DNA from: Chloropicon primus
Taxonomy: Eukaryota
Assembly: GCA_023205875.1 (NCBI GenBank)
Contig: CP060759.1
Span: forward strand, 434,001 to 498,000
Direction of reading: 5' to 3'
DNA: 64,000 nt
Shown here: piece after piece, positions 8,203 through 57,368 of the stretch
How positions within the stretch are numbered: position 1 is the stretch's first letter
How the letters are laid out: each line of letters starts with the position of its first letter
Position numbers and translations under genes: made by a program
The notes under the pieces: generated by a model
What the model saw: the letters and a program-made list of their open reading frames with translations, nothing else
What the model was told of the DNA's origin: nothing
Database searches by the model: none

Positions 8203-8845
8203 AAACGACGACGACGACGACGACGACGACAATGATGATGATAGTGATGATGATGTTGAAGTTGTTTGTTATGGTGTCCTCCTTGTCACAAGCTCTTGCT
8301 TCGTTCCTGTCTCAAGGCCAGTACATCATCTTGCCTCTTTGGCTTGTGTCTGACACGCAGTACCAAGGCCCTTCTCCTCCTCTTGGTCGTGGGACCAAGG
8401 TCTTGTCTTTGTCTCTTGGCTGTGGCACGGAGGAGGATGAGGAGGATGAGCAAGCAAAGCAAGATTTTTGCTCGTTCTCGTTCTCGTTCTTTCCCCTCTC
8501 TGGCCACAGGAAGGAAGGAAGGAAGGTTGTAGTGCAATCCTATCCAAAATGTGAGGATAAATTGAAGGGACAGGAGGGGACCAGCATCCTATCGGGGGGT
8601 GATGGACCACGGTCCGATTCAAGGGAGGGAAAGCTGTTTTCCGAAGACCAGGAGGCGATGATTCCGTCACGTTGGTGGCTTCCCATCCCACCCCTGGCCT
8701 CGGTCCATGATCGATCGTCTCACGTTTTGTTAGTGTTAAAAGAGGAAGAGAGTTCAGAGAGTGGGACGCACGAGACATGGCGTTCGACGAGTTTCGATGA
8801 GACCAGAGGTCTGCTATGCATTCAGACGGCAATAAAAGTGTTGGG

Positions 8846-10345
8846 TTAGGCCTTGGCTTCCTCCTCTTCCTCTATACGAAGTCGCACGGCCTTCCTCGCC
8901 GCGAAAACCCTGGTAATATGCTTCAGAACTTCCTTCTCTTTCGTCTCGTAGTTGCTCAGCTTCCTTCCAGTCAAAGACTCGATGCTGTGCAGCAGCTGTA
9001 TCGTGTACTGGGTGACAAAGGTCAGGGCCCTACCGCTTCGGCCAGCTCTTCCCGTCCTCCCCACCCGATGAATGTACTCCCTGGGCAAGAAAGGTAAGTC
9101 AAAATTGATGACGAGGTCCACGGTCGGGATGTCAAGTCCCCTGCTCGCGACGTCCGTGGCAACCAGAATGGGGCAGACGCCCGACTTGAACTTGTTCAGA
9201 CTGCTCATCCTCTTCTTTTGCTTCTGCTGAGAGTGCAAGGCCACGGCAAGGATGTCTAGCTCGTCCAGCAGATACGAGAGGACGTGGCAGCTTTCACACG
9301 ACTTGACGAATATCATCGCGGACCTGACTTTCATCTCCTCGAACTTCTGAAGGATATGGAAGAGGTACACTTCTTTCACCTTCTCTGGAACGAACAGGTA
9401 CTGATCGTTTATTTTTTCCACCGTTTTGAACGTGTCGTGCTGGGACCACTTGAAGCAGTCCTTCATCACCACCTCCTGCAGAACCTCGATGTTCTTCGAG
9501 ATTGTAGCAGAGAAAAGCAGAGTCTGCCGCTTGGACGGCAGGTACCCCCCGATGACTTTCAGGTCCTCCTCGAACGACGGGTCAAGAATCCTGTCCGCCT
9601 CGTCGATCACGAACATCCGGAGCCTCTTGAAGGCCTCCGCACAGCTCGAGTCGTGAATCAGGATGTCCTTGAGGCGGCCCGGAGTAGCGAAAACAAAGTG
9701 TGGCTTCCTCGCCAGCTCCCTGCACTGGTCCGTCACGCTCATGCCCCCAACGATGGCCACGCCCGATATCCCCATCACGTTCCCGCCCAGGCCCCGGAGC
9801 TGCTCCAGAGCCTGGTACGCGAGCTCCCTCGCAGGAACCAGAACCAAACAGAAGACTCCCACCCTATCCTTTGCCAGCATCTGGAGCGCCGGAAGCAAAA
9901 AGCAGGCAGTCTTTCCGCTTCCCGTCTCCGCGCAGGCGACAACATCCCTGCCGCCCAGGATCGGGGGAATACACGCCGACTGCACGGGCGTCGCCTTCTT
10001 CATTCCAAGCGAGTCGCACACCGAGCACACCCAAGCATTCAGACCAGTCGCTCGAAACCCGTCTCCCAAAGCCCCACCCCCGCCGCCTCCATCCCCGGGG
10101 ACCGATGCACCCGCTCCCTGGTCCTCCTTCCCGCCATCCCCGCTTCCACGGCTGCCCTTCTTCCTCTTCCCGCTGCTTTTCCTCCTCTGCCTCTCCCCTC
10201 CCTGGTCCTCCAGTGGCGTTTCCTCGGCCAAAGTCGTCTTCCTCTTCCTCTCCTTCCCTTGCTCCCTCCCCTTCTTCCTCTTCCTCGTCGACAAGGTCGA
10301 GAATATCGACACCCCGTCCTCCTCCTCCGAACCCTGCACGCTCAT
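8846..10345 (-). CDS. DDX49: DEAD-box RNA helicase, DBP8/DDX49/RH36 type
   Basis: AETGSGKT, ATPGRL, DEAD, FSAT, VASRGLDIPTVDLVINFD, YIHRVGRTGRAGR. Confidence 0.88.
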   Translation of the reverse strand: MSVQGSEEEDGVSIFSTLSTRKRKKGREQGKERKRKTTLAEETPLEDQGGERQRRKSSGKRKKGSRGSGDGGKEDQGAGASVPGDGGGGGGALGDGFRATGLNAWVCSVCDSLGMKKATPVQSACIPPILGGRDVVACAETGSGKTACFLLPALQMLAKDRVGVFCLVLVPARELAYQALEQLRGLGGNVMGISGVAIVGGMSVTDQCRELARKPHFVFATPGRLKDILIHDSSCAEAFKRLRMFVIDEADRILDPSFEEDLKVIGGYLPSKRQTLLFSATISKNIEVLQEVVMKDCFKWSQHDTFKTVEKINDQYLFVPEKVKEVYLFHILQKFEEMKVRSAMIFVKSCESCHVLSYLLDELDILAVALHSQQKQKKRMSSLNKFKSGVCPILVATDVASRGLDIPTVDLVINFDLPFLPREYIHRVGRTGRAGRSGRALTFVTQYTIQLLHSIESLTGRKLSNYETKEKEVLKHITRVFAARKAVRLRIEEEEEAKA

Positions 10346-10909
10346 GCCCTCACCCCCTCCCGCCTCACTCCCTCACACACTCCAACCCACCCTCACTCCT
10401 GGCCCTGGCCGCCCAATGCCTCTCAAACCCTCACCCCTCCGTCCACAGTGGACCAAAATCGTCGAACAAGGAACCAATCGAAAGAGCGTGAGATGACGCC
10501 TTCGCTAGCGTCTTCGCTTCTGGCCCTCCTCGCCCTCCTCGCCCTCCGCTTGGATCGCAAAGTCGTCCCTTCCAAAGTCTGCAGAGCGAGGCGAAGCTCC
10601 GGCTCCCGTAGGTTTGAGAGAGAGAGAGAGCAGAAGGGGGGAGGACGAGAGAGAGAGAGAGAGAAGGACGAGAGGACGAGAGGGTCGGGACGGGAGGGTG
10701 GGGAGAGCGTCTGCGTCGGACGAAGAATCTTCGTCTCTTCCTCTTTTGAAAGAGCGGTCGCTCGCTCGAAACGAACGGCGCAGTGGCGAGGACTCGAGCA
10801 ACGAGAGAGGGAGGGAGGGAGGCAGGAAGTAGGGGAAGGGGACGGTCGTCGTCGGTTGTGTCGAGGGAGGGAAGGTGCTGGGAGTGCGGAGGGGTAGAGG
10901 GACTTCGTA

Positions 10910-12238
10910 ATGGGTGGTACGTCGAGCAAGCTCGAGAAGAGTCTTGGGGGGCAGCTACCGGACGGGGAGAACTACTACGGTTTGGAAAACTTCGGGAACA
11001 CGTGCTATTGTAACTCGGTCCTCCAGGCGCTTTACTTTTGTCAGCCATTCAGGGAGAAGATATTGGAGAGGGCTCAGGTCATCGGATCGAATGACGGGGA
11101 CAACCTTTTGGATTGCCTGAGCAACCTCTTCTTGCAGATTCATACGCAGAAGAAGAAGACGGGTGTGATAGCACCGAAGAGGTTCGTGCAGAGGCTGAAG
11201 AAGGACAACGAGCTTTTCAGGAGTTACATGCATCAGGTGCGTATGGATCCGGGGGGGGAAGGGGGGAAGGGGCTCGTTGAACGGATCTCGTCTCCCATCG
11301 CTTGAAGACTGTGCCCTCTTCTCCTCTTCCGTTTGAGAAGTAGCAGCACTGACACACTTTCTGCTCCTCGCCTTGGCCACCTCAACAGGACGCTCAGGAG
11401 TTCTTCAACTACCTCTTGAACGAGATGTGCGACATATTGGAGAGGGAGAAGCGGGAAGCTTTGCCGAAGACAGCGGTTATTCCGCCGGAGCAGCTGAGGA
11501 CGTGGATTCACGACACGTTCCAGGGCAAACTCGTGAACGAGACGAGGTGCCTTTACTGCGAGAACGTGACTAGCAGGGACGAGACGTTCTTTGACCTCTC
11601 TCTCGACGTTGAGCAGAACTCAAGGTAGGATCAAAGCGAATCGACGTTGATTTTGAGTGCACTCTGTTCTTTCGTTCGACTGCTGACACAAACACAAACA
11701 CACTCTTCGTTTCCGTCGCTCTTCCCCTCCGAACAAACTTTGCAGCATATCGGCTTGCTTGAAGAACTTTAGCTCCACGGAGACCCTCGGAAAGGACGAC
11801 AAGTTCCTTTGCGACAATTGCAACGGCTTGCAGGAGGCGCAGAAGGGGATGAAAGTGAAATCTGTTCCGAAAATACTTGTCCTCCACCTCAAGAGGTTCA
11901 AGTACATCGAGCACTTGGGGCGGTACAGAAAGCTTTCGTACAGGGTGGTCTTCCCTTTCGAGCTCAAGCTTTCAAATACTGCGGAGACCACCCCGGACGT
12001 GGACATTCCTTACAACCTGTTCGCGGTTGTTGTCCACGTGGGTTCGGGGCCAAACCACGGGCACTACATCTGCGTCATCAAGTCCAACCAGAACTGGCTG
12101 ATATTCGACGACGAGAACGTGGACCTCATCGACGAGAGCGTTCTCCCCAACTTTTTTGGCTCTTCCAGGGAGTTCAGCGGCAACAGCGAGAACGGGTACA
12201 TCCTCTTGTACGAGCAGGAAAGCAAGGAGAGTCTGTGA
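10910..12238 (+). CDS. Ubiquitin-specific protease, UBP3/4 (USP12/46) type, 3 exons, N-myristoylation-type start
   Basis: [18 protein letters not shown]ys box, [21 protein letters not shown]is box; introns 11237-11388 and 11625-11745. Confidence 0.93.
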
Positions 12239-12489
12239 AAATATATTGTAGAATGATTGGGTAAAAAATTGAAGAGAATATAAACTATTGAAGCGGCCGC
12301 GTGGTCGCTTTGTGTAACGAATTGTTATAAGCGTTTTGTTGTTGGTTTTCGAACGGCTTCGGCTTCCCAGAGCGGAGTGCGTTGGGGGGGGGGGTAAAGA
12401 GGGCACGCGGAACAAGCATTCTCCCAGGGGGGAAACCCAAATTGTATTTTTTATATTTCGCTAAGAAGACAGACAAAACGTTGTTACTT

Positions 12490-13340
12490 TTAGAAGAGAG
12501 CAACGTTAGGCCTGGAAGCCTTGAAGGTTGACCTATACTTCTTCTCGGATGGCCTGACAACCTTGTGTGGAATAGGGAAGGAAAGGCCCTCCTTGTGGAA
12601 CTGGAGAACGATTGGCCTCTTGCACTCCTCGTCCTTCAAGACAGCAGTCTTAATAATCTGGATGCAGGAAGCTCTGATTCTATGGCGGGCAGCCAAGTCT
12701 TGGTACATCTGGTCGATGGCACCGTTCATGGTGACATCCCTGAACTCCTTGAACATGTTGTAGTAACCAGTCCTGGAGAGAACTCTAAGCCACACGCCGA
12801 AGTTCTTCACGACGGTTGGGTCCTTCTCAAAGATCTCGTTCACGGCGATGATCTGTCCGTTCGCCTTCTTCACTCTCTTCAAGCGCTTGATGAAGTACCA
12901 GAACTTGGACCTGGCGCAGACCTCGTCCACTGCCCACACCTTCATGCGGTACAGGGAAGGGCTAGGGTTGGCCTCGGTGGGCAAGTGACGCCCCACGATT
13001 TGGTATTGATGATACTGCGAGACAGAGACACACATAGAGAGAGACAGAGAAAGCAAAGCGGAGCGAAGAAGAGGGAAAGGAGAGTCAGTCGAAGCTTCCA
13101 ACAATCCCCGTCATAAACAAAAAACAAAACCAACACGCCAAGAACAACAACAACAACCACAAACCTCTCCCTCTCAGGTCTCTCTCCTGGTCCTCTCTCC
13201 TTTCGCGAAACAAAGAACGAAAAGAAAGCATCGCGACGGAGGGAGGGGGGTCGAGACACCGCGAGCGCTTCGTCCTCGTTGTCGTCGTCCCCGCCGTCGT
13301 CGTCGTCGTCCTCGCTCCTTACCTTGAAGTCCGTCGTCAT
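12490..13340 (-). CDS. RPL18A: 60S ribosomal protein L18a (eL20), 2 exons
   Basis: MTTDFK|YHQYQIVGRHLPT...ARSKFWYF...VKNFGVWLR...YNMFKEFRD; intron 13015-13322. Confidence 0.95.
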
Positions 13341-13660
13341 GGTGATCGATGAGTCTGCTCCTCCTCGCCCTCGCTCGTTTTTTTTCTTTTCCATTTCATT
13401 CCTCCTTCACAAACAAGACGGGAAATCTACAGCCGCCAAACCAAACCGGAGCCGCCACCCGAAGAGATCCGAAAAACGAAAAAATATGTCCAATGTTCGA
13501 AATCGGATCCCTTGGAAAAGTATCGCCGTATACCGAATCTATATAGTTTCGAGTGCAAAGGAGTCAGAGTAGTGGAGCCCGTGTTGTGGTCGGGGTGAGA
13601 AACGGGTGTAAAAAGAACGAAACCCGAGAGGGCGCGCGCTCAGAGGAGCGAGAGCAAGAG

Positions 13661-13696
13661 CGACGGTGACGGTGACGGTGACGGTGACGGTGACGG
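13661..13696. repeat. (GACGGT)n hexamer repeat immediately upstream of the LSM4 ATG
   Basis: gacggt repeated about 6 times. Confidence 0.85.
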
Positions 13697-13697
13697 A

Positions 13698-14357: not shown

Positions 14358-14566
14358 AGGGGAAGGACTTGCGGGCGCGCGAGAGGAAAGCGGCGTGGCG
14401 CGGGAGAAGCGAGCAGCGCTCTCACGCGGAGCGACCGGGTGCGGCGGCGAGGGAAGCGCGTCCCACCGACATCGGACTCATCTTGTAACCCTGGTATAGT
14501 GTACAACGTGGTGTGATCCCATAATTATGATTGTTTTTCGCGTCGCCGCCGTCGTCTTTCGAGCGC

Positions 14567-14775: not shown

Positions 14776-14848
<73 letters not shown>

Positions 14849-15646: not shown

Positions 15647-15734
15647 TCTTTGGAGCCACGACTTACGCTTCCATGAGGGTGGCTTCGGCGTGGACCGCCT
15701 CCCCCGTGTGTCCGTCCGCCAGGAACCTCACCAT
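14567..15734 (-). CDS. GDT1/UPF0016 (TMEM165) Ca2+/Mn2+ transporter, 4 exons
   Basis: Motifs SEIGDETF and AEWGDRSQ; introns 15478-15666, 15011-15137 and 14725-14862. Confidence 0.92.
14781..14842. repeat. (GA)n microsatellite in a GDT1 intron; similar tracts at ~15597-15643, 36078-36109, 48074-48135 (CT then GT) and 63881-63914
   Basis: About 31 GA units read directly. Confidence 0.95.
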
Positions 15735-16686
15735 CACAACCGCCCCACAACCCTCCTCGCACCACCAAGAAACCAAAACTGGCAAGCGACGCGTCAATGG
15801 AATCCTCTGGAGAAGAGGAAGGACGTTCCGCAGGGTTCTTGACCTCGTATCGCGGCGGTACTCACGTCTTCCCCGTCCAAAGCCCACGCCCACTCTGACG
15901 ATCGATCACGCTCCTGATCTCGTCGAGCGATCGGTGCAAGATCGATTTTGAACCTCCAGACTCGTTTCTTTCCAACACGTTACCTTTGGGTAGAATTCCT
16001 CACACTGGTGTAATGTCTCTTGGAGGAAGAGAGAAACAGAAGGGGGTGGGTCGCGATCGATCAGAACGGAGGACCACGGACGACGAGCGAGGGAGAGGAC
16101 GAGTGGGCGACGAAGGGGCGCACGGGGCGGTGAGGGGACGACCAAAGCTCTCGATAAAGGATTTGTGCTCGGCTTGGCTTGATCGGTCTCGGGTTTCGAT
16201 TTTTTTTTTTTTGGTTTCGCACCCTCTTTCCTTCTTCTTCTTTTCTTCGGACACGAGGCAGAGGAGAGGAAGTAACCGATAAAACCCTGAGGGGTAGGGG
16301 GGTTGCTTTTGCTTTTCCGGGTCCGGGGGAAGGAGAGAGAGAGCGTTACGGGTAACGCTCGAGAGGGGTGACTTTCGAAGCCGCGGCTTGGGTGGTTGGG
16401 GGGTCGGGCGAGCGCCGAGGTGAGTGGAAGCAAAAAAGGAAACTGCCGTCGAGTCTATCGTTCGTGGTTCCACGTTCTTTCTCTCTTCTTGGTGTTTCGT
16501 TCCTCTCCGGTGGTCCCTCTCTGGCTCTGGCTCTTGGGAGGAAACTCTAGTGTCGTCGCGTCGTTCGTGCGTCTGACTCGGTCGCTTCTCTAGGCGTTCT
16601 CTTGTGTTTGTGTGTGTGTGTGTTCGAGTCGATCGATCGTACGATCGACGACGACGACGACGACGACGCGCGCGAGAAGCAGAAAC

Positions 16687-19020
16687 ATGGACAGGGAGAT
16701 TATCGAGCTGCAGCCGGGTTGGGAAAAATGTCGGATGTACATAAACAAGCTCATCGCGTTCCTGGAGAAGGAGACGGAGTCTGCCTTCACCTCGGAGGAG
16801 TACATGAGCTTCTACACGATCGTGTACAACATGTGCACCCAGAAGAACCCTTATGACTTCAGCCAGGAGCTGTACCAGCGTTACAGGGACAGCTTCACGG
16901 GGTACATATCGGAGAGGGTTGCCCCCGCCCTGCAGGAGAAGAACGGCGAGGCGATGCTCCACGAGCTGACGATGAGGTGGGAGAACCACAAGCTCATGGT
17001 GAGGCTGCTAAGCAGGATCTTCAAGTACCTCGACCGTTACTACGTCAGCAGGTACAACCTGGACTACCTCAACGACGTGGGGCTCATGTGTTTCAGGGAC
17101 ATCGTGTACGAGTACATGAAGCCGACGATGAAGAACGCTGTCCTTTCCATGGTCCTCAAGGAGAGGGAGGGGGAGCAAATCGATAGGCAGCTCGTGAAGA
17201 CGGTGCTCGAGATCTTCGTTGAGATCGGGCTCGGAAACATGAAGAACTACGAGGAGGACTTTGAGAAGTACATCCTGGAAGAAACTTCGCTCCACTACAG
17301 GACGAAAGCCAGCGAGTGGATCGAGGACGACTCCTGCCCCGCGTACATGATCAAGGCGGAGAAGTGCCTCGAGCTCGAGAAGGACAGAGTGAACCAGCAG
17401 CAGCAGGTCGAGGGCGCTGGTGGTGCTTCTGCCAAAGACGCCGACGGCGCCAGCAAGCAGGTCAACTCGGGCTACTTCCACCACACGACGGAGAGCCGCT
17501 TGCTCGACTGCGTCGAGGACGAGCTCCTCGCCAAGTACGAGATGCAGCTTCTCGAGAAGGAGAACTCGGGGTGCGTAGCGCTTTTGAGGGAGGACAAGAA
17601 GGAAGACCTCGCGAGAATGTACAGGCTCTTCTCCCGCATCCCGAAAGGGAAGGAGCCCGTGGCCAAGATGCTCAGCAAGCACATCGAAAGCGAGGGAATG
17701 GCCATGGTTAAGGAGTGCAACGAGAGGGCGGAACAGGCGAAGGCCGAAGCCTTGACCAAATCCAAGAAGGAGAGGAGGAACCAAGAAAGCCAGGAGACCG
17801 TGTTCGTAAAGAGGCTGATCAAGCTTCACGACAAGTACTTGTTGTACGTCCAAGAGTGCTTTGACAACGACGCGCTTTTCCACAAAGCTCTGAAAGAAGC
17901 CTTTGAGAACTTCTGCCACAAGCAAGTGGCGAACTGCGCGTGCTCTGAGCTGCTTGCTAGCTTCTGCGACAACCTGCTGAAGAAAGGTTCCGGAGAGAAA
18001 TTATCTGGGGATGCTATCGAAGAAACCTTTGAGAAGATTTGCAAACTGCTTGCGTACATCTCGGACAAGGACATGTACGCCGAGTTTTACAGGAAGAAGT
18101 TGTCCAAGAGGCTTCTTTTCGACCGCTCCGCGAACGAAGATCACGAGAGGTCCATGCTGGCAAGGTTGAAGCAACAATGCGGGCCGCAGTTCACCTCGAA
18201 GATGGAGGGAATGTTGACAGACCTCCAAGTTGCGAAAGACAATCAAGGGAGGTTTGAGCAGCACTTGGAGAAGAATCCAGAGAAGAAGCCTCCTCTCGAT
18301 TTGTCTGTTTTAGTTCTCACGCAGGGCTTCTGGCCTAGCTACCCAGTGAACACGATGATCATTCCTGATGAGATGGAGAAGGGCATTGAGATCTTCAAAG
18401 AGTTTTACGACCTCAAGACCAAACACAGGAAGTTGACGTGGGTGTTTACTCTGGGAGTGTGCCATCTTTCCGGGCGGTTCGGCAGCCCAAGGGAGAAAAA
18501 GTACAACTTCCAAATGAATACTATGCAAGCTGCTGTCATGATGCTGTTCAACAGCGAGGAAAAGCTTAGTTTTGGTGAAGTGCGGGATAGGCTGAAGCTG
18601 GACGATGCGGACGTCATCAGACTTTTGCACTCCCTGAGTTGCGCCAAGTACAAGCTCTTGCTGAAGAATCCCCCGGGCAAGACGGTGAGCAAGACGGACA
18701 TCTTTGAGCTCAACACCAAGTTCCAGGACAAGATGGCCAGGATCAGAATTCCTCTGCCCCCTGTTGAACAAGAAAAGAAGAAGGTGGCGGAGATTGTCCA
18801 TGCGGATCGCAGGTACCAAATAGATGCAGCAATTGTGAGGATAATGAAGGCCAGAAAAGTTTTGAAGCACTCTGAGCTCATGACCGAGACCGTGACGCAG
18901 CTCAGCTCATCGTTCAAACCAGATGTGAAGACGATCAAGAAGAGAATCATGGACTTGATCGAGAGGGATTTCTTGGAGCGCGATAAGAACGATCCCCAGT
19001 TATTTAGGTATTTGGCTTGA
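16687..19020 (+). CDS. CUL1: Cullin-1
   Basis: YTIVYNMCTQK, DKDMYAEFYRKKLSKRLL, FTSKMEGM, neddylation motif IDAAIVRIMKARK; probable 5'UTR intron 16420-16593. Confidence 0.95.
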   Translation: MDREIIELQPGWEKCRMYINKLIAFLEKETESAFTSEEYMSFYTIVYNMCTQKNPYDFSQELYQRYRDSFTGYISERVAPALQEKNGEAMLHELTMRWENHKLMVRLLSRIFKYLDRYYVSRYNLDYLNDVGLMCFRDIVYEYMKPTMKNAVLSMVLKEREGEQIDRQLVKTVLEIFVEIGLGNMKNYEEDFEKYILEETSLHYRTKASEWIEDDSCPAYMIKAEKCLELEKDRVNQQQQVEGAGGASAKDADGASKQVNSGYFHHTTESRLLDCVEDELLAKYEMQLLEKENSGCVALLREDKKEDLARMYRLFSRIPKGKEPVAKMLSKHIESEGMAMVKECNERAEQAKAEALTKSKKERRNQESQETVFVKRLIKLHDKYLLYVQECFDNDALFHKALKEAFENFCHKQVANCACSELLASFCDNLLKKGSGEKLSGDAIEETFEKICKLLAYISDKDMYAEFYRKKLSKRLLFDRSANEDHERSMLARLKQQCGPQFTSKMEGMLTDLQVAKDNQGRFEQHLEKNPEKKPPLDLSVLVLTQGFWPSYPVNTMIIPDEMEKGIEIFKEFYDLKTKHRKLTWVFTLGVCHLSGRFGSPREKKYNFQMNTMQAAVMMLFNSEEKLSFGEVRDRLKLDDADVIRLLHSLSCAKYKLLLKNPPGKTVSKTDIFELNTKFQDKMARIRIPLPPVEQEKKKVAEIVHADRRYQIDAAIVRIMKARKVLKHSELMTETVTQLSSSFKPDVKTIKKRIMDLIERDFLERDKNDPQLFRYLA

Positions 19021-19096
19021 GGGATTCTTTCTTTTGTACATCTCTTGTAATACATCATTTGTAACACACACACACACCGTCAATCGCGGCGTGTGA

Positions 19097-21331
19097 TTAC
19101 TTCCTCGGATTTGGTGCTTTCACCACGAAGCTGTCCATGGTCTTCTGCGTGCCAGACTTGTCCGAGCCGGAAGATCTCTGCGTCCCAGGCTTCTCGTTAA
19201 GATTCATCTTGCTCTCCTTGCCGTCAAGGAGTGTCCCGATATTCCCAAGCTTGTTCTTCAGGGCCGCCCAAATAATGTCGTCTATAGACCCTTTCATGTG
19301 AAGGTAATGCACATTCACAGAGGAGGCCTGACCTATTCTGTGCGCCCTGTCCTCCGCTTGGACCAGGTTTCCCGGAACCCAATCAAGCTCTGCCATCACC
19401 ACCAGACTTGCTGCAGTCAGCGTCAGCCCCACTCCCGCGGCCTTTATGCTGAGAATGGCAGCTCGATAGACGTCATTCTCCTGAAATTTTTGTACAAGCT
19501 CTGCCCTACTGTTCGATGGCGTCGAACCGTCGATCCTGATGAACTTCACCCTCTTCTCCCTCAGGTGCGACTCGATTGAATCTAGGACACATTTGTGGTG
19601 GCCGAAAACCAAGAACTTCTGTTCCGCCTCCAGCAGGACGCTGAGGTAGTCGCAGATTGCCTTGCACTTTATTTCCCCGGATTTCAAGTACAGCTCGTTG
19701 ATTTTCTGGTTCTTCCCGAAATCTCCGGAGAAGAGAGCGCCGCTCCCGGTGCCATCTTTGAGCGCTGTCTCCAGCTCAAATAGTTTTTCGGTCATTCCCT
19801 TCAACTGCCGCTGCTCCGCGCTGGTGACTGGCAAAAGGATTTGCTGGCGACGCTTCGGAGGTAGCTGTGACAGCACATCCTTTTTGAGCCTCCGTATCAT
19901 GGTAGTGCTCGTTACAACCTGGTGCAGCTCCTTGAGGTTGCTGGCCCCCATGTACCTCGCCCCAGGATACTTTTGTGCGAACCATGCGCCGCCCGTGCAA
20001 TACCTGTCCCCGTACTCCTTGATGGACTTCACCGATTGAGGGTGTATCGCTCGAAGCTGCTGAAGGAGCTCGATGGGCCTCGATAGAGCAGGCGTTCCTG
20101 TCAGGAGCACAACGTGCTTTGCTTGCTGAAGCAATGGGAGGGATTCTTTTGACCTCTTTGCCTTGTAGTTCTTGATGTAGTGGGCCTCGTCACAGATGAT
20201 CATCTGGAAATTCCTCTCTTTCAAGTAGTGGAACATCTTGGGGATGAAGTCGTACGAGATGATGACGAACCGATTCTTCAAGCTTGTCGTGTCCTTCCCA
20301 GTGTTCACGATAGAGACTTCGTCTTCGGTCACCCTCAGCCACTCGTAAATGGCTTCCGCCCATTGAATCTTCAATGAAGATGGCGTGACGATCAACACGG
20401 GCTTTGCTTCCCTGAAGGCTTCAACGAGCGCAAGAGCCTGGACCGTCTTTCCCAGGCCCATCTCGTCCCCGATTAGCCCCCTCCCGTTCAATCGGATCAT
20501 GTACCGAACCCCTTCGGTCTGGAACCCCATCAGCTTGCCCCGAAGATGCTGGGGGATGCCCTCAAAAACCTCTTGAACTTGCTTGTCCGTGCGCCTCCTA
20601 CCGAGGGCAGAACGCATGAGGCGAAGCGCAAAGGGGTGGACTTCCTCCACTTTGCACTGCACTTGCGGCACGGAGTTCTTCAAGAAATCCACAATGTGGT
20701 CGTGCTTCAGCACGCAGAAAGACCACACTCTGTTCTCGTTGTCCCAGGTGCACCCTTCCTTCTTCCTCAACGTGGCATCCAGCGCACTCTGATCTCCGTT
20801 CACGAAGAAGATGCCGAACCTCTCCCCATTCCCAATCATCCTCAAGGAGAGGGACACTTGCCTCACCTGTTGGTGGTCTGCACGGTTCCACACCGTGCGG
20901 CTCCCGTCTCCAGGTTGCTGTGACAAGGAGGTGCTCGGCTGGGGGTTCCTATTGTAACAGTCCTGAATTTTCTGGCGATCGCTGGGGGTTATCATGGCAC
21001 GCTCCTGAAACTGGTTCCTCTGTTGAGCCGGTTCGAGCAAACCTGGTGCCCTGGCACCCATCGCACCGCTCGCCCTTCCCGAGTTGAAGTCATTCGAGCC
21101 AAAGTGGTTTTGGCGCGAGTGATCAGCAGCCTGAGGTTGATGGCTTGAGGCTGCCACTTTCGGCCTCTTCGCTTGGCTTTCTGCCGCTCGAAGGGCACGG
21201 TCTAGCGCAGCATACTCTGCATCAGGAATTCTCTCGGCCTGTGACACCGCCCGGTCTAACGCCGCGAAGAAATCGTCCGAGACAACCTCAACACGCTGCT
21301 GGTGGATTCCCTTGTGTCTGTCATTCCTCAT
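19097..21331 (-). CDS. SMARCAL1: SMARCAL1/HARP-like SNF2 annealing helicase
   Basis: HARP-like region (WDNENRVWSF), GDEMGLGKT, DEAH, LLTGTPALSRPIEL, RIDGST, QAEDRAHRIGQ; start codon uncertain. Confidence 0.85.
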   Translation of the reverse strand: MRNDRHKGIHQQRVEVVSDDFFAALDRAVSQAERIPDAEYAALDRALRAAESQAKRPKVAASSHQPQAADHSRQNHFGSNDFNSGRASGAMGARAPGLLEPAQQRNQFQERAMITPSDRQKIQDCYNRNPQPSTSLSQQPGDGSRTVWNRADHQQVRQVSLSLRMIGNGERFGIFFVNGDQSALDATLRKKEGCTWDNENRVWSFCVLKHDHIVDFLKNSVPQVQCKVEEVHPFALRLMRSALGRRRTDKQVQEVFEGIPQHLRGKLMGFQTEGVRYMIRLNGRGLIGDEMGLGKTVQALALVEAFREAKPVLIVTPSSLKIQWAEAIYEWLRVTEDEVSIVNTGKDTTSLKNRFVIISYDFIPKMFHYLKERNFQMIICDEAHYIKNYKAKRSKESLPLLQQAKHVVLLTGTPALSRPIELLQQLRAIHPQSVKSIKEYGDRYCTGGAWFAQKYPGARYMGASNLKELHQVVTSTTMIRRLKKDVLSQLPPKRRQQILLPVTSAEQRQLKGMTEKLFELETALKDGTGSGALFSGDFGKNQKINELYLKSGEIKCKAICDYLSVLLEAEQKFLVFGHHKCVLDSIESHLREKRVKFIRIDGSTPSNSRAELVQKFQENDVYRAAILSIKAAGVGLTLTAASLVVMAELDWVPGNLVQAEDRAHRIGQASSVNVHYLHMKGSIDDIIWAALKNKLGNIGTLLDGKESKMNLNEKPGTQRSSGSDKSGTQKTMDSFVVKAPNPRK

Positions 21332-36111: not shown

Positions 36112-36742
36112 AGGCGCGCCGATGACTCGTCACGGCGTTGTTCCTCGCGAGCGACCGGTCAAACGAAAGACCGCGACCTCCTCCTTCCCCTGCGCCGTCC
36201 CCGTCGCCTCCCTCCTCCTCCCTTCGCCCCTCTTCCTCCGCCAAGCGCGTCCGATCGATCGTGGCGCCCTCCTCGTGCCTTCTGGCGCGCCTGATCAATC
36301 ATAGGGTTGGGGGAGACGAAGCGCGCGAGGCTCGATCGATCGACAGGCGAGAGCGAGAGGAGGGCGAGGCGATCAGGTTGTGAGGAGGGAGAGGAAAGGG
36401 AGCAGAGGTAACGATAGTGTGTCTCGAGATCTTTCCATTGTGCCCTCCATTGCCCAATTTGGCCACCGATTGACGGCAGGACAGGGGGGAGACGCTTGGC
36501 CGGGAAAGGCCGAACGAAGGGGGAGAGGAGCGCTCGCTTTGAGGAGGAGGAGGGTCGCAGGACGAGAAAGAGGGAGAGGCGGCGCTACGAAGGTGGTAGC
36601 TTGCCTTGCGATCTTTCGACTGGTACCTTGCTTGCCCAGTTTGGATACTTTTTCGGGTCACGGCACGCGCGTTGGGTTTTGTTCTTCGTCGACGGTTACT
36701 TTGTGTCTCGAGGCAGGACGGAAGGGGAAGGGAAAGGGCGAG

Positions 36743-37901
36743 ATGGTTGAGTTGCTGCCCACGTTGGAGGTGTGCGATGCGCCCAAGGGGGAATCCGTCC
36801 CGGTTGCATTCATGCTGGCGGGTTTCCCGGACGACCACTCGTGCTACGCAAAGTTGGCGGAGGGTATGAAGAAGACGCACAGGGTTGTCATCGCCTGCCT
36901 GCCCTTGTACGATCAGGAGAGCGTCAAGGAGGGCCAGCCCGACTTTTACAGCTGGGAGGAGATCCTCTTCAGGCTCGAGGCCACGGTTTTCGGGTGCACA
37001 GCGGAGGGGGAGAAGATCACGCTCATCATTCACGACTTTGGTTGCCCCTTCGGGTACCACTTTGCGAATCTGCACCCGGACAAGGTGGAGAAGCTCGTCG
37101 GTTTGGACATCGGGTGCACGAACAGGCTGGTCCTGGCGGGCGAGGGCTCCAGGCACAGGTACAGGCACGTGAAATTTCCTGCGATGTCTCCGCCCGAGCC
37201 CCCTGAGAAGTGGAACAAGCTCAACCAGGCCTTCTACCAGCTCTACTTTTGCATGGCGTTCCTCGTGGGCCAGAAAGTGAACTACAAGGCCGGGGACGTT
37301 CTGCTCCACGCCTTCTTCAAGTGGGCGGCGTGGGTTGGATTCATACAGAGCAAAGACCAGCCCGAGAGCAAACACGCGAGGGCGCTGCAGGACGTGCACT
37401 GCTGGATGTGCTATCCATACTGGGCGTGCTGGAGCAGAATTCTGTTCCAGAAGAAATCTCACATGTTCACCCACACTTACGAGTCCCAGTACACGAACCC
37501 AAAAGGTAAGTCGCCAGCCTCCCCGGCCCCGATGCATCGTTCGGTTGTCTCGCTCTCGCGCGCAACAAGGAGCTGACGGCGCGAGCATTTCTCTCCCTCT
37601 CTCTCTCTCTCTGCCCTGCCAAAAACCAGTCGTGGGCCACACGGGCCTCATCCCACTCTCTCTGCCAATGCCCCCGTGCGAGACTTTGTTCCTGTATGGC
37701 ACGAGGAAGCGAGTTCACTTTCACTCGAAGACTTTCTTGAAGTACCTGAAAGACACGCCAGGGTGCGCTGGCATGGGAGTCGATGGCGGCCACTGGTTCT
37801 TCCTGGACAAGCCAGACTTCGTCTTGAAGATCGTAAAAGACTTTCTCAATGGCGTCGTCTACAATTGGTCTGACCCCGTCACCACCACCCCCAAGCTCTG
37901 A
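36743..37901 (+). CDS. Alpha/beta hydrolase, epoxide-hydrolase-like, 2 exons
   Basis: AGFPD oxyanion loop, HDFG Asp nucleophile, GGHWFF catalytic His; intron 37506-37629. Confidence 0.8.
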
Positions 37902-43558: not shown

Positions 43559-44536
43559 TTAGGCACAGTTCAGCATCAGCCAATTCACGGCGTCCTCCAA
43601 AACAAAATTCGTCTCCTTCAAGGCGTCCATCGCGTACTTCTTCGTGAAACCCATGGCTAAAATTTGCTGGAGAACTTCGGGGTCCGCGCTCTCCCCCGGA
43701 TGCACGCTCTTGTCGTGCCTCTTGGTCTTTCCTCCTGCCTTCTTGCTCATCTTGTTTTCACCCCGCGAGACCCCAACTTCGATGGACTTGCGACCCTTGC
43801 CCTTTCCTTTGCCGCCTCTGCTGACCGGAGTCGTGTTCTCCTTCCCCTCCCCCTTGATCCGCGTCGGCGCAGCGGCCCCGTCGCTCTTGCCGCCGACACC
43901 CTCACCCTTCAGCCCAGAACTCACGCCGTCCCCCGCTTCCCCCGTGACCTCTTTGCCCTTGTTCTTCTCCCAGACCCCGTGCAGGGCCTTGAGGTTCACC
44001 CGAAGCTTCTTCAGCACCCCCACCAGCGCCTTCTTGTCGAGGGACTTGGTCTCGATGGGATCCTCCAACGAAAGGTGCTCCTCAATCAGAGACTTGTCCT
44101 TCTCAAGCTTGAACTGATCGAGAGCATCCTTGTACGACTGCCTCACCTCCTCCGACAGGCCGTACTTTGCCTTGGCCTCCGCTTGCCACTTGGCACGGAG
44201 AGTTTTAGTCGGGTTGGGACCGGAGTTGATCAACAGGCCGCCCTTCCTCTCTCCATCCTTCTTGTCGTTATCCTCCCGGATCTTATCCAGGTCAACGCAC
44301 AGACCGGTATAAGCCGCCAGACTCTGTTGCCCGATCAACCGCTGCGTTTGGCCGTTCAGCTGCTGGATCAGTTTCCCCGAAAGGTAACCGGATTCCAGGA
44401 TCTGCACCCACCGTCCCACGCCGTAATACATGAGACAATACTTTAGGATGACAACCTCCTCTTTGGTGAAGCCAGGAGACGGTGCGAAGTTCCACAACGA
44501 AACCGCATCGCCGATCTTTGGTCCGCGCTTGCTCAT
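43559..44536 (-). CDS. Homologue of p1 (AMTP1), the HTH subunit of the MTA1c/AMT1 DNA N6-adenine methyltransferase complex, with a C-terminal UBA domain
   Basis: SLWNFAPSPGFTKEEVVILKYCLMYYGVGRWVQILESGYLSGKLIQQLNGQTQRLIGQQSL..GL.VDL..RK..INSGPNPTK..YGLS follows the recalled Tetrahymena p1 N-terminus; C-terminal LQQILAMGF..KYAMDALKETN..LEDAVNWL is a UBA signature. Confidence 0.82.
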   Translation of the reverse strand: MSKRGPKIGDAVSLWNFAPSPGFTKEEVVILKYCLMYYGVGRWVQILESGYLSGKLIQQLNGQTQRLIGQQSLAAYTGLCVDLDKIREDNDKKDGERKGGLLINSGPNPTKTLRAKWQAEAKAKYGLSEEVRQSYKDALDQFKLEKDKSLIEEHLSLEDPIETKSLDKKALVGVLKKLRVNLKALHGVWEKNKGKEVTGEAGDGVSSGLKGEGVGGKSDGAAAPTRIKGEGKENTTPVSRGGKGKGKGRKSIEVGVSRGENKMSKKAGGKTKRHDKSVHPGESADPEVLQQILAMGFTKKYAMDALKETNFVLEDAVNWLMLNCA

Positions 44537-50675: not shown

Positions 50676-52291
50676 ATGGTGACGACGCGAAGGCAGGCGG
50701 CCGCAGGGAGCGGCAATGGCGATGCACCGCGAGGGTCGAGGACCAAGAAGGACTCGTCAAAGAGCGACGTCGCGGGACGCCACCCTGACCACGTGGAGTA
50801 CGAGTTCTTCGGTCCCATCCTCGGCCCCATCGGCATCGTGGTTGGCCTCCCTGCTGTGATGTTTGGCTTGTACGGGTTCTGCGGGAAGCATGGGTGCGTC
50901 TCGCTCAAGCCTTTCGAGATCCCGGAGGTGAACATCGGGGACCGCGCGATCTCCTTCGAGGGCTTCCTCGTTTACTTGGGCTGGATCTTCGGCGTGGTAA
51001 GTTGGTTTTGAGATCGCAAGCCTCGAGTACTCTCGTGGCAAACCTCTGTGACGGGTGGGACACTGACTCGCCTCGATTGGAATGATTGGAATGATTAGGC
51101 CCTCCTTCACTTGGTCTTGCCCAGCTCCAGGAAGCTGGGCGTGAGCCTTGCGAACGGGAAGCGCCTGGAGTACCGGATGAACGGGCTGCTCGTGTACGCG
51201 ACCACCCTGCTTCTGGTCTACGCCCTCGTGGCGGACTGGGACTGGCCCCAAAAGATCGGTTTGAGGGCGTCCATGCTGGGATACGTGTACGACCACTACG
51301 TGGAGCTCATCTCGGCGTCTGTTGTATGCACCCTGCTGTTCAGCATTGCGTTGTACCTCGCGTCTTTCAGGTCGAAATCCGTTCTTTGTGCAAAAGGTAA
51401 GGGAACACCGCCGCGCTCTCGAGGCGGGGGTGGGGACGCAGCTGCTCCCTCGTTGGCGTGAGGAACTAACTTTACCGAAATGGCTTGAAATTCTCTCGAC
51501 TCTCGCTCGAACTCCGACAAGGCGGCGACACGGGAAGCAGAATCTACGACTTTTTCATCGGGCGCGAGCTCAATCCGAGAATAGGCAGCTTTGACCTCAA
51601 GGAGTTTTGCGAGCTGTACCCGGGTCTGATAGGTTGGGTGGTCATTGACTTGGCCATGGCGTACAAGCAGCACGAGATTCACGGCTCGGTTTCCAACTCC
51701 ATGGCCATGGTATGCCTCTTCCACGCGATTTACGTGGCCGACGCGCTCTACTACGAGAAGTCCATCTTGACGACAATGGACATCGTTCACGATGGTTTTG
51801 GCTTCATGCTCGCTTTCGGGGACCTTGCTTGGGTCCCGTTCACGTACACCGTGCAGGCCCGCTACCTGGTGGACCACCCAATCCACCTGTCCCGCGCCTT
51901 TTTGGCCGTTGTGCTGGCTTTGAAGATCGTCGGTTACCTGGCGTTCAGAGGAGCAAACGGCCAGAAGGATATGTTCCGGAGAGACCCGAACTCCCCAAAG
52001 GTCAAGCACATCAAGTACATCAAGACGAAGAGGGGGACGAGGCTCATGGTCTCCGGGTGGTGGGGAATCGCGAGGCACATCAACTACACGGCTGATTGGA
52101 TCATGGGCCTGTCGTGGTGCCTTCCCTGCGGTTTCGATCACGTCGTCCCCTACTTTTATGCGATTTACTTTGGAGTTCTCCTCATTCACAGGGACTTGAG
52201 GGACGGTGAGGCGTGCGAGAACAAGTATGGCAGCGACTGGGACAAGTACTGCAACGTGGTCAAGTACAGATTGATTCCCTTTGTCTACTAA
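50676..52291 (+). CDS. ERG24: Delta(14)-sterol reductase (ERG24/FACKEL), 3 exons
   Basis: YEFFGP, YRMNG, GRELNPRIG, TTMDIVHDGFGFMLAFGDLAWVPFTY, SGWWGIARHINY, KYGSDWDKYC; introns 50997-51098 and 51397-51521. Confidence 0.93.
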
Positions 52292-52681
52292 AGACAAACG
52301 CGGTCCGTGTAACCATATCTATCCTATCCTCCTTCCTTCCCCCACTCTCAATTTTACGATTGCGAAACCAACCAGGATTTCGCACAAAACACCAAGGTCC
52401 CTCCTCCAACAGAAACAGAAAGCGGATCGAGTGCCTTGGGTACCGAGCAAGCTTCGAGCTTCCTTCCGGTCCCCGCATGGTGTCCTGCCCAGACCAGGGA
52501 GCCCACCACTTGCTTCGGTCCTCGAGAGGGTCTAGAACAACCCACCCAGGGTCTCCTCCCAAGATGGTTTGCCGAGTGGTGAGAGGGATGGAGTAGGAAA
52601 GGGGAACGGTTGTCACAGTTTTTTCAAGTCCAGGAAGGGAACGCGGGTCACCTCCCTCCGAGGGAAGGAACAAAGGCAGCC

Positions 52682-53720
52682 ATGGACTACACGAGTAGTG
52701 CCCACATGAAGGAAAAGAAAGCGGAGAGGGAGGCAATGGCATTCATTGACCAGCTTGTGGTGGACGTCGGAGGGCTCAAGAGTCATATCAGGAGTCTCCA
52801 ACAAAAGTGCGAGGTGGGTTTACCGAGTGTGAGGTGGAGGAAAGAGCGGGTCCTAACCGCAAGAGCCCGCCGAGGTTTCGGTCCTTCTGCGCCACAGGCG
52901 CTTTGCTCTTCCCGTCCTCGAAAAGGTGGCCAGTTTTTCAGAGTTGTGGCCAATGAATCTGGTGTGACGGTCCGGAGCGAATCGGCAGCACAGGTCGTGC
53001 CACCACGGTTTGAGACACGCTTGCTGACAATCATCTTCGTGCTCTTCCTCACAGGAGGTGGACGCTATGCTGGTCCCTGCGGAATTCCCCAAGAGCAACA
53101 AGAAAGGTGAGCACCCCCTGGAGCAGCAAGGCAAGGTAGTGCTACCCCAAACCCCTCCCCACTGACGTTACGCTGCCTTTGTTTCGATCGTGCAGTGGAG
53201 AGAATCAGCGTGAACAGGCACAAGAGCGTGGAGCTCGTTCGGAAGGAGAGGGACCAAGAAAGAAAGCAAAAGTATTGGTCGAGCCCCACTTCCCTGATTC
53301 CGGTGAGCTTGCCGAGGCAGACGCCTGAGGAGCAAGAGCAGAGGGAGCTCAAGGAGAAGAAGGAGAAGACTTACATGGAGTATGCCAGCGTGAGCTTCAA
53401 GGTATGTGGCCACCGCATCGAACGAGGACGAGGGACACTGACGGCAACGACTTGTAATTTTTCCTGCTCTCTTCGGGAACTACTCGACCGCAAAGGCTTC
53501 GGAACGGACCGTCGAGCACTACCAGGACGGGGTGAAGAGCTTCAGGACCGGGAAAGTCAGGGACAAGTACCTGCACAAGCAGGACATGGAGAAGCTCAAG
53601 GAGCACCAAAAAGGCGTCACCAGCTCGCGCGCCGCGGCGAGGCAGCTCTCGAACGCCCTCAGCGGGTGGGTGGAGCAGCCCGAGGGCGAGGACATCGACG
53701 AAGATAAGCGGAAAGACTAG
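52682..53720 (+). CDS. Hypothetical protein, 4 exons
   Basis: Introns 52814-53054, 53107-53195 and 53402-53495 give one open frame to TAG 53718-53720. Confidence 0.7.
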
Positions 53721-53838
53721 GTCTAATAGTTATTTACAGCTTCCTATATATCATTGCCTCCGAAGAACAGCAAGCGGCAGCTCGTGCCACACTACCCAAT
53801 AAGAATGATAAAGTCCAGATGATGAAGAAGATGATGAT

Positions 53839-54317
53839 TTACTTCTTGCTCTTCTTGGACTGCATCTTGAGCACCTTCTTGACAATCTTCTGCTCCTCGA
53901 TCAAGAAAGCCCTGACGATTCTAGTCCTGACGTTGGCGCCGGAAAGGACGCCTCCGTATGGGCGGTGGACAGTGCGATCCTTCTTGTTCGTCTGGCTCTT
54001 GGATCCTGTGTCGTGATTCAGCACCAGCAAAACAAAACAAAACAAAACTCGGTTGTCAGACCAAAAAAAAGAAAAGCACGAGAGAGAGAGAGAGGTTGGA
54101 GGCGTCTCCGTCCGCGTCCGAAATGAAACTCACCCTTGGCTGGCCTGAGGACAGGAACGCCGTTCAATATCTGCTTGGACATAGGGTCCACGGCAGGGTT
54201 GCTCTTCTTCGCCACATAGTGAAACACGAGCTTTCCACCTGGAGTCTTCAACTTCTTGACCCTGTTGCTCTTCGTAGCATACGAGTGCCTCCTTCTGTAC
54301 GTCAAACGCTGAACCAT
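53839..54317 (-). CDS. RPL34: 60S ribosomal protein L34 (eL34), 2 exons
   Basis: [25 protein letters not shown]...[27 protein letters not shown]; intron 54006-54133. Confidence 0.96.
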
Positions 54318-54775
54318 CTTGCCCTCTCAATCACACACACACCTCGTGCCCTTGTAATGCGTCGCGCGATCAACTCCGCTTCTCTCTCTGAGGAACGCCG
54401 CTCTCTCGTTTTCGTTGCGTTTCGTTTCGTTTCGACGCTTCTCTGTCTCTGTACGGAGTAGATTTCCCTTCTTAACAAGGAACAAAAAAAAAGAGGCGGC
54501 GGCGGCTGGGTATCATCCAGTGTAAAGACTATAAAAGAGTGTACATGACGTGAACCAGCGGGAGCGAAAAAAGAAAACCAGCACGCGCAGCCGATCGATC
54601 GCTTGTGCGTTCTTGCTTTGGTGAAGGTTCTTTGCTTGTCACGGGTAATCATATCGTGTCCAGCTGCGGATTGAAGTTCTTTATTCTCTCCCCCACTACC
54701 TTTTTTTTTTTTCTGTTCTCTCGCCCTTCAGGAGCCACCGAGAACAACGACGACGACGACGACGACGACAACAAG

Positions 54776-55270
54776 ATGAGATTGGAGACGTGCTGGTTTT
54801 GCTCTTCGAACATTTACCCCGGGAGGGGCGTTGTGTTCGCGAGGAACGACGGCACCGTGTTCAGATTCTGCCGCTCCAAGTGCCACAACAACTTCAAGAT
54901 GAAGCGTAACCCGCGGAAGGTGAAGTGGACCAAGGCGTACAGGGCAGCCAAGGGGAAGGACCTGACGAACGACACGACGTTCGAGCTGGAGAGGAAGAGG
55001 AACAGACCGGAGAGGTACAACAGGGACGTGATGCAGAAGACTCTGAAGGCGATGGAGAGAATCACGGATATTCGAAACCAGCGCGAGTCGAGGTTCATCG
55101 CCAACCGCTTGAAGGAGAGGAAGAGGCAGGAGAGGAAGCTCGCGAGGAAGCAGCTCGACCAGGAGATCCACCTCGTCCAGTCCCCAGCCGCCGCGATTGC
55201 TTCCACCTCCAAGGAGAAGCTCAAGACGCCCGTCGAGAAGGTCAGGGGGAGGCAGAAGATGCAGGAGTAG
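54776..55270 (+). CDS. RLP24: Ribosome biogenesis protein RLP24
   Basis: [44 protein letters not shown]. Confidence 0.95.
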
Positions 55271-55417
55271 AACCTTGCAAAGGAGGTCTGTTGTTTATCG
55301 ATGGGCGCTCGCGCGCGTACTCGCTCTTTGCTCCTCAAGTGGGGGCACGCCCGGGGAGGCCGCCGAGCGCCACGGGTGGCCAAGTCCTGATGATCGGCTT
55401 GCACGTTTGCCTCAGTT

Positions 55418-56848
55418 TCAGCCGTGCGTGAATTTCCTGCCGCCAAAGACGTCGACAAAGCTCTGCGAAGCGCCCGCCGCATGATTTTGATGTTTCGGCT
55501 TGTGATTCTTCTGATCCTTCGAGCTCCCGGGAGCCTTTTGCCTTTCCTTCGCGGCGGAGGGGGGGGCTGTCCTTGGCTTTCTCCTCGCTTGGCGAGGCTT
55601 GTCTTGCTCGTGCGCGGGCAACAAGTTCCTGGCTGAGGAATGGAATCAGGGGTACGAAAATGTTTTGGGGCGGGGAGCAAGCCGACGACTGTAAGTAATA
55701 CGCACACTAGCGCACTTGTAATTCAATCACACACACACACACGTTCTCACTGATGCCTTTCGCGAGAGACTCACCCGTGACGAAAGTGGGTCCGGGATGG
55801 ATGGACTGGGCGCTGCTGTGGAATCGTGGAGCTTGGTGGTTGCTGCGACTCGAGCCAAGGGGAGCCTGAGCAAGAGCCCAGCTCAGTCAGTCATCGGAGA
55901 AAGCGACAACACGCGGAACAAGTGTTTGAGAGAGAGAGAGAGAGAGAGCAAGTGCTTACCACGTGATCGAACGCTTTCCTGAGCTTTGCGATCTCCTCCT
56001 GCTCGTGCATGTGCTCCATGACCAGGACGTCAATCCTGTACGAGACACAGAGAGAGAAACCAACACAGACGACGACGCGTGTGAGCAAAGGTGTCCATAG
56101 AAATGCCAGGCATTGAATGCCTGAAGGAAGGATGAGGGAAAGGGGCTCTTCACCTGTCTTGCAGAAGCTGCTTCTCGTGCTGATGGGCAAGGATGTCAGC
56201 GGCAACGATGCTCTCCTCGGCGCTCTCGCGCTGCTCACGCCTTCGCAGTGCCATCTGCTCGTCCACGTCATCCCTCTCCTCGCGCATTTTCACCATGGCT
56301 TCCCTCAGCCACGATATGTACTCCTCCAAGTTCTCCAGCTGCACTGCGAACTTTTGGGTCTCCTTCTCCAGGTTTGCCGCCTCCGCCGCGGCGCGGCTCT
56401 CCCGCTCTTCCAGCCTGGGAACATCCGAGTCGTGAGCTTTGCAAACTTTGTCTGCAGAGTCCATGCTCTGCTGAATCTCGCGCGAATCCAGTCCGGACTG
56501 GTATCTCTTGCTGTCCCGCATGAACGAATTCACTCTGGAGAACAAGTTCTTCCGCATGTCACGCACCTCCCCCCTCCTCGAGTCCAATCTGTCCTGGGCG
56601 ATCTGCTTCTGCCTCAAGACTATGCTCTGGCCTTGGTCGATCGAGAGAAACTTTCTCAGCTTGAGGGCCGCGACGTCGTCCACGTGACGGGCGATCGCCT
56701 CTTCCACCTCCGCACCCTCCGCCCTCGTCGCCTTGAGCCTTTTCTTCACGCTCTCGATGACTTTGGACTCCTGTCTGATGGAAGCGTCGATGCTTCGCAG
56801 CTGCTTCGCGAGCGAGTTCACCGCGTCCGTCAGCGCGTCGTCCAGCAT
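55418..56848 (-). CDS. Hypothetical coiled-coil protein, 4 exons
   Basis: Heptad-rich exon 1 (56154-56848); introns ~56036-56153, ~55866-55959 and ~55633-55775 keep frame to the stop at 55418. Confidence 0.7.
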
Positions 56849-56973
56849 CGTCGTGATCGTGGTTGGAGAGCGACAGAAGCAGCTCCACCGGCCTCAGGTC
56901 CCCCAGGGAGGCGAAGAAGTGATCGCAGATTCTGAACACGAGGCGGAACGCCGAGGAAAGAGAGCTTGTGCGA

Positions 56974-57368
56974 TCTTCACGTCCTCCTCCTCCTGCCTCC
57001 TCCTCGCGATGCGATCGATCGATCACCGGCAGCTGTCCTCTTCGATCAAAGTGATCGCAGACTTCCCACCCACGCACGAAAAGAGGAAAGAAAAAAAACC
57101 GAGAGAAGCACAGGGAGCAGAGACACTGGCAAGTCTTCGTCTTCACGTCCTCCTCCTCCTGCCTCCTCCTCGCGATGCGATCGATCGATCACCGGCAGCT
57201 GTCCTCTTCGATCAAAGTGATCGCAGACTTCCCACCCACGCACGAAAAGAGGAAAGAAAAAAAACCGAGAGAAGCACAGGGAGCAGAGACACTGGCAAGT
57301 CTTCGTCTTCACGTCCTCCTCCTCCTGCCTCCTCCTCGCGATGCGATCGATCGATCACCGGCAGCTGT
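56974..57368. repeat. Perfect 166-bp tandem duplication (~2.4 copies) in a divergent promoter
   Basis: cttcacgtcc recurs at 56975, 57141 and 57307; the units look identical by eye. Confidence 0.95.

Follow-up and report, generated by a model that had tools for sequence, protein, structure and literature searches.

In a 64,000-nucleotide stretch of the Chloropicon primus genome (contig CP060759.1, positions 434,001 to 498,000; hereafter the window), a tandemly doubled GATC word, GATCGATC, is concentrated in the non-coding DNA upstream of genes. The bias of this doublet toward gene starts is real, but it is modest and smaller than was first claimed in a preliminary description of the window. 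The bias appears to work most like the GATC element of plants. Our tentative reading, to which we give a probability of roughly 0.45, is that the doublet is a cis-regulatory GATC-type site read by a GATA zinc-finger factor that, bound close to the start of the transcript or slightly within it, would raise transcription.

Enrichment of the doublet near gene starts

The window holds 13 overlapping matches to GATCGATC at 10 places, where 1.37 are expected and the largest number in 100 shuffles is 5. All ten coordinates in the preliminary description are correct. However, the three at 57013, 57179 and 57345 are identical copies of one tandem repeat and therefore count as a single site, which leaves eight independent sites. 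These eight runs, of 9–13 bp, are all phases of (CGAT)n, usually with the fuller word CGATCGATC(G), and never exceed three units.

The statistical basis is the window alone, and since GATCGATC was picked from the same window on which it is tested, the p-values need the corrections stated with them. We divided the window according to 34 gene models built by hand from open reading frames (ORFs), Pfam hits and splice signals; ten of the introns and leader introns are confirmed as spliced joints in RNA contigs, and the remainder are our own reading. The resulting classes are coding sequence (CDS, 43.5 kb), 5′-flanking DNA (divergent and tandem intergenic regions, 12.5 kb in 21 regions) and other non-coding DNA (introns and convergent intergenic regions, 7.7 kb). 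Positions 57037-57368, the extra tandem copies, were removed from the counts, but kept in the per-region table, the first autocorrelation and the list of runs.

All eight independent (CGAT)n runs of at least 9 bp lie in 5′ regions, where they occupy 5 of the 21: four of the 12 divergent regions and one of the nine tandem ones. The shuffle means for these regions are 0.26, 0.40, 0.58 and 2.02 (k = 2 to 5), and none of 500 shuffles at any k reaches 8. Against a third-order Markov model, GATCGATC ranks first among the 8362 8-mers of the 5′ regions (8 observed, 0.54 expected; p = 1.1e-7, or about 9e-4 after correction). As had been noted by eye, GATCGATC is missing from the CDS of our models; with an expectation of only 0.97, this says little by itself. 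An 8-bp run in another phase, TCGATCGA at 56637, does lie inside CDS, and 7-bp runs are common there.

Short repeats abound in the non-coding DNA (49 short-repeat rows are listed for the window), and we therefore added a slippage null. GATC runs are doubled in 8 of 59 cases, whereas primitive 4-mers of these regions taken together give 172 of 10885 (1.6%), so the background rate of tetranucleotide slippage is not matched. Doubling is never seen in the other palindromic words GTAC (0/23), AGCT (0/36), TGCA (0/27), ACGT (0/30) and CATG (0/8). Shorter words point in the same direction. When 5′ regions are compared with other non-coding DNA, CGATC is the top word of 497 5-mers (64 versus 6) and GATC the third of 136 4-mers (68 versus 12, a ratio of 3.5), although GATC is only 1.25-fold enriched over CDS. 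GATC outside the doublets is also more frequent in 5′ regions (51 versus 13 in other non-coding DNA, p = 0.002).

Location of the doublets relative to genes and transcripts

The densest sites lie around the divergent GDT1/CUL1 pair. Five GATCs, at 15900, 15904, 15916, 15929 and 15940, make up a cluster at 15899..15946, as previously described, with one doublet (15899-15907) that is 166 bp from the GDT1 ATG (15734, minus strand). A second doublet is at 16054..16062, and TCGATCGATCG followed by a further CGATCG is at 16629..16648, 56 bp before the CUL1 ATG (16687, plus strand). RNA contigs place some of these sites in leaders. The 15900 doublet is within the GDT1 leader in a spliced contig of run X6 (15665-15924), one of three RNA runs; the GDT1 contigs of X4 and X5 end at ~15872 and ~15895, short of it. 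The 16631 doublet is in CUL1 leader exon 2 according to spliced contigs from two of the three runs, X4 and X5 (16592-20000, with a joint from 16417), and may be ~700 bp from the transcript start. The 16055 doublet is probably in CUL1 leader exon 1: the X4 contig has 486 letters before 16592 and would reach ~15932 if colinear, while the 255 letters of the X5 contig are too few. RNA contig ends are not transcript starts, which contigs cannot show, and contig depth cannot rank genes.

Two sites, CGATCGATCG at 36252..36261 and the perfect 12-bp palindrome TCGATCGATCGA at 36332..36343, lie between the divergent VPS28 gene (ATG 36067, minus strand) and an ORF with its ATG at 36743 (plus strand). The latter was labelled alpha/beta-hydrolase-like in the preliminary description only, and has no Pfam match in the frames scanned. 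A second copy of CGATCGATCG (54592..54601) is between the divergent RPL34 gene (ATG 54317, minus strand) and an RLP24-like L24e gene (ATG 54776, plus strand). It follows by ~60 bp the word TATAAAAG (54530..54537, plus strand), which is the sole TATAAA in any divergent region of the window; given the usual spacing between a TATA box and the start, RLP24 transcripts would begin ~30 bp upstream of the 54593 motif. Position 54701, where contigs of two runs suggested an RLP24 start, was rejected because a T12 run begins there.

The remaining divergent site is in a perfect 166-bp tandem repeat of 2.4 copies (56974..57368), which fills the region between a coiled-coil ORF (ATG 56848, minus strand) and a gene with an S6 domain (ATG 57489, plus strand). 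The repeat copies are 100% identical, and each carries CGATCGATCGATC (57012-57024, 57178-57190 and 57344-57356). In DNA run X1, which may be the source sample although it shows 7 differences from the window over 6.5 kb, a 63-bp unit and a loop form separate contigs with depths of 411 and 193, with flanks at 115-126. These depths are consistent with a real repeat, and an assembly artefact as the source of the triple is not favoured by the X1 read graph. The tandem duplication looks like a recent event and is perhaps variable between alleles. Loose ends in X1, X3, X4 and X5 suggest that ~47 bp of the repeat unit (56978-57024, with the triple GATC) are present at a second locus as well as in an RNA contig.

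The eighth site, a 9-bp (GATC)n run at 8709..8717, belongs to a tandem intergenic region and precedes the ATG of an NPC1/Patched-like gene (8202, minus strand) by 507 bp. On its other side, a short way off, is the 3′ end of a DEAD-box gene, whose RNA contigs end at 8768 and 8811. The sites at 8709 and 54593 and the tandem repeat are outside the listed RNA contigs, which is no evidence that they are not transcribed.

The sites had been described as lying mostly in divergent gene pairs, which holds for four divergent regions but not for 8709, and often 140–190 bp from an ATG, which holds for four of the eight (144, 166, 183 and 186 bp). The other four are at 56, 267, 321 and 507 bp, and the distances show no significant clustering (p = 0.12-0.15). 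When six of the sites were folded as DNA, hairpin z-scores ran from -1.3 to +1.6, none unusual, and no Rfam family matches at the doublet sites.

Resemblance to known GATC elements

The signal is specific to GATC, flanked by C or G, near gene starts and partly in leaders, which together argue for a sequence-specific reader. Candidate readers are known. Plant C2C2-GATA factors all bind GATC, as seen in Arabidopsis and Marchantia (PMC12142463), and two GATA factors of the chlorophyte Scenedesmus obliquus bind it as well (PMC12638912). GATA genes number 5-15 in each of 15 chlorophytes, Chloropicon not being among those listed (PMC11608367). In vascular plants, GATC within 500 bp after the transcription start site (TSS) raises transcription by about half per copy, additively, through GATA factors (PMC11525189). 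Thus the proposal that the doublet is an undescribed palindromic promoter element fits as regards an element near gene starts, but the kind is already described: GATC-core elements that lie near the TSS and are bound by GATA factors have been published for plants, and GATC binding for a chlorophyte. Our literature search, whose coverage took in few subscription journals, found no paper on the doublet motif in Chloropicon. The term 'GATA' is not found in 12 of the 20 supplement files of PMC6731263, files that do not amount to the full annotation.

The closest counterpart is the plant downstream GATC motif, YVGATCBR (Voichek et al. 2024, PMC11525189), which shares with the doublet a GATC core, several copies per gene, proximity to the start and presence in leaders. 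YVGATCBR itself is present at five of the eight sites, and its density per kb is 0.86-0.93 in 5′ regions, 0.67 in introns, 0.14 in CDS and 0 in convergent regions. Unlike the plant motif, the word is here doubled head to tail and has C/G flanks, while AGATCT is not enriched. The host is also a chlorophyte, and the available text of PMC11525189 has no matches for 'algae'. The intron-mediated enhancement words CGATT, TTNGATYTG, TCGATC and AGATCG (PMC3141229, PMC8157754) have similar CGAT and TCGATC content and occur in 5′ untranslated regions too. Every doublet contains TCGATC and GATCGA; however, none of the doublets is in a coding-region intron or in the CUL1 leader intron. Fungal promoters bound by the C2C2-GATA protein WC-2 have the same core in paired GATCs, but those are 20-30 bp apart or somewhat closer (PMC12638772), whereas ours abut. 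Finally, the volvocine promoter word AGCGATCG, which contains CGATCG, raised the output of a synthetic Chlamydomonas promoter and is active in 2-3 copies, although in that work it is upstream of the TSS and at 20-bp spacing (PMC11264317).

Under a GATA-factor reading, Chloropicon would carry a GATC-binding GATA factor, and this putative factor would bind the doublets near or inside the transcript start and raise transcription. A 4-bp slip would turn one CGATCG into two overlapping sites, a cheap step in dose that adds no ATG on either strand. Such sites would be expected to turn over quickly, and so would not be kept in place between species.

A related locus allows a limited comparison. A metagenome scan with CUL1 gave one locus (L001) from 37 candidate stretches; a prokaryote scan with RLP24 gave one weak, unrelated locus (L002), and a viral scan with VPS28 gave none. 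The CUL1 encoded by L001 is 81% identical and is still paired divergently with GDT1. The 11 kb of L001 hold no doublet, and its intergenic DNA has four single GATCs; CGATCG counts are small, with three in the 5′ DNA (1621 bp) and one in the CDS (8961 bp). Judging from these two sequences, the position of doublets is not conserved. As about one doublet would be expected in the 5′ DNA of L001 at the density of the window, its zero does not refute a genome-wide bias. We also observed that GDT1, CUL1, WD40 and SNF2 genes occur together in L001 (3512-4460 and 8364-10708), with WD40/SNF2 inverted and rearranged relative to the window.

Several observations count against a GATA-read element. The evidence comes from a single window, with a motif chosen post hoc, and the doublet is present in only 5 of 21 regions. 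The placement of doublets in 5′ rather than other non-coding DNA is weak (p = 0.022 for eight sites, 0.09 for five regions). CGATC counts are clumped in three regions, and p is 0.037 when 65 blocks are permuted; outside the doublets, CGATC is as dense in 5′ regions as in CDS (2.7 versus 2.6 per kb, p = 0.40). The contrast in single GATC owes as much to its scarcity in introns and convergent regions as to its abundance in 5′ regions, and the 8-mers ranked after GATCGATC are plain microsatellites, (GAT)n, (GAC)n and (GA)n. The GDT1/CUL1 region has three doublets here and none in L001, where it no longer aligns. Moreover, the effect of GATC in plants fades outside vascular plants (PMC11525189), and in Chlamydomonas and Volvox related intron signals either were missing or could not be recognised (PMC3141229).

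Alternative explanations

The alternative that survives best, though we consider it somewhat unlikely, is that the doublets are neutral microsatellites: (CGAT)n would arise by 4-bp slips and be tolerated in leaders because it is free of ATG, with no protein to read it. The short repeats that fill the non-coding DNA and rank just below GATCGATC fit this explanation, as do the lack of doublets in the orthologous region of L001 and the origin of three copies in one duplication. CATG is strongly avoided in 5′ regions (a ratio of 0.16 to CDS), which shows that ATG avoidance shapes the words used there. Neutral slippage accounts less well for a GATC doubling about ninefold above the local baseline when other ATG-free palindromic words are not doubled, for runs that stop at three units, and for single GATC being more frequent in 5′ regions than in the rest of the non-coding DNA. 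Introns and convergent regions are just as prone to slippage (1.6% and 1.1%), yet none of their 12 GATC runs is doubled, a count too small to decide.

We judge it distinctly unlikely that the doublets are a footprint of N6-methyladenine (6mA), in which GATC would be kept as a preferred SATS target of the AMT1/MTA1c methyltransferase, with dense symmetric 6mA in the first linkers after the TSS. The preliminary description pointed to a p1 gene in the window. This gene for the p1 subunit of the adenine methyltransferase complex (43559..44536, minus strand) is intact and real; its product matches p1 of the ciliate MTA1c complex (PDB 7f4l_E p1, E = 8.5e-29) and has a C-terminal UBA domain (UBA_7), an architecture common to many green-algal homologues. 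However, p1 acts in trans, its homologues are widespread across chlorophytes and its own 5′ region has no GATC, so its position is no evidence for a footprint. Published work on AMT1 species makes SATS the most methylated context and finds that 6mA peaks just after the TSS (PMC12695648), and chlorophytes including Auxenochlorella show this pattern (PMC12633428); 12 supplementary files of PMC12695648 do not name Chloropicon. Given p1, the alga probably methylates ApT after gene starts, as other chlorophytes do. Likeness to the published clusters thus extends to the presence of p1, to GATC being a SATS context and to the 5′ location, with some sites in leaders; GATC is also the sole SATS word without ATG on either strand.

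The composition of the window differs from what such a footprint predicts. ApT is not enriched in divergent regions (31.6 per kb, versus 36.3 in CDS and 24.7 in introns; observed-to-expected ratios 0.61, 0.80 and 0.45). The SATS contexts do not behave alike, since only GATC is enriched: relative to other non-coding DNA, the ratio is 1.06 for CATC/GATG and 0.41 for CATG, compared with 3.5 for GATC. Among adjacent SATS-SATS pairs in 5′ regions there are nine of GATCGATC and three of the other nine pair types together. Nor is there a trace of nucleosome spacing in this small sample of GATC pairs once the tandem copies are removed, with 11 observed at 160-200 bp where 14.7 are expected, and no excess at 120-200 bp, although a periodic mark would not have to leave a periodic sequence. 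Autocorrelation peaks at 166 and 331 bp, which might have indicated nucleosome periodicity, reflect the tandem repeat and are gone after the extra 332 bp are dropped; CG autocorrelation shows no periodicity. In AMT1/MTA1c clusters, by contrast, the mark is not GATC-specific, and 6mA seldom leaves a trace in composition, rarely shaping or mirroring ApT content (PMC12695648). As the expected ApT and SATS excess is not seen, the idea that the motif marks 6mA clusters is poorly supported. The doublet sites may well be methylated, but methylation is unlikely to be the reason that they are there.

A long shot would unite methylation with GATA binding. GATC words would be both GATA sites and the best AMT1 substrates, methylation would gate the activator after the TSS, and the GATC enhancer of vascular plants would be an older element, shared with chlorophytes, that at one time coincided with the zone of 6mA and outlived the methyltransferase, which to our knowledge has been lost in land plants.

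It is improbable that another reader (whether a factor of the GARP/Myb type, an unknown one, or the core initiation machinery where two starts are back to back) explains the doublets, for although the densest cluster (15900-15943) straddles the ends of the longest GDT1 (15924) and CUL1 (~15932) contigs, 54593 follows a TATA box and three of the eight sites miss YVGATCBR, contig ends are not starts, distances to ATGs are scattered and 16 of 21 regions have no doublet, unlike a core promoter element.

Other features of the window

The window is gene-dense, eukaryotic and of 56% GC, and includes plastid-targeted genes, e.g. Raf1 and SRP54. Its RLP24-like and VPS28 proteins share 90%-identity clusters with proteins of Chloropicon laureae and C. 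roscoffensis. Among the other words of the 5′ regions, ATCCTATC occurs five times where 0.14 are expected, the third of the 8362 8-mers. Genes with GATC-rich upstream DNA (RPL18a, LSM4, GDT1, SRP54, VPS28, GluRS and RPL34) seem mostly to have no (CAT)n runs, and those with (CAT)n runs (ALS, CFAP36-like, NPC1-like, SNF2 and O-methyltransferase-like) seem mostly to have no GATC. A very AT-rich array, (AAATAT)9.5, is found at 5121-5177, upstream of the CFAP36/BART-like gene. Positions 250-600 are occupied by a degenerate repeat of many copies, whose contig depth is very high in runs of both DNA and RNA (7676 in X1), which suggests a dispersed or subtelomeric family.

Downstream of the S6-domain gene, in non-coding DNA, the C/D small nucleolar RNA (snoRNA) R38 (Rfam RF00213, 46.1 bits) is encoded at 58662-58749 on the plus strand. 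Three runs show splicing of the GT-AG intron (~58617-58840) that contains it. Another splice joint, from 58891 to ~59305, and additional C/D-like boxes recognized by eye suggest a snoRNA host transcript.

Implications

For profiles relative to the TSS across the genome, the control words that we name beside GATCGATC are GTACGTAC, AGCTAGCT and CATCCATC, together with intron DNA. Should a genome-wide test fail, the doublets would amount to a small microsatellite bias of no consequence. If they are functional, however, they would push the GATC element of plants back beyond land plants, to a streamlined marine chlorophyte, two other algae having been reported to lack related signals, and would offer a short handle for building promoters. 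A lineage that also has a subunit of the 6mA machinery would then offer a setting in which to see whether the same bases serve both adenine methylation and GATA binding.

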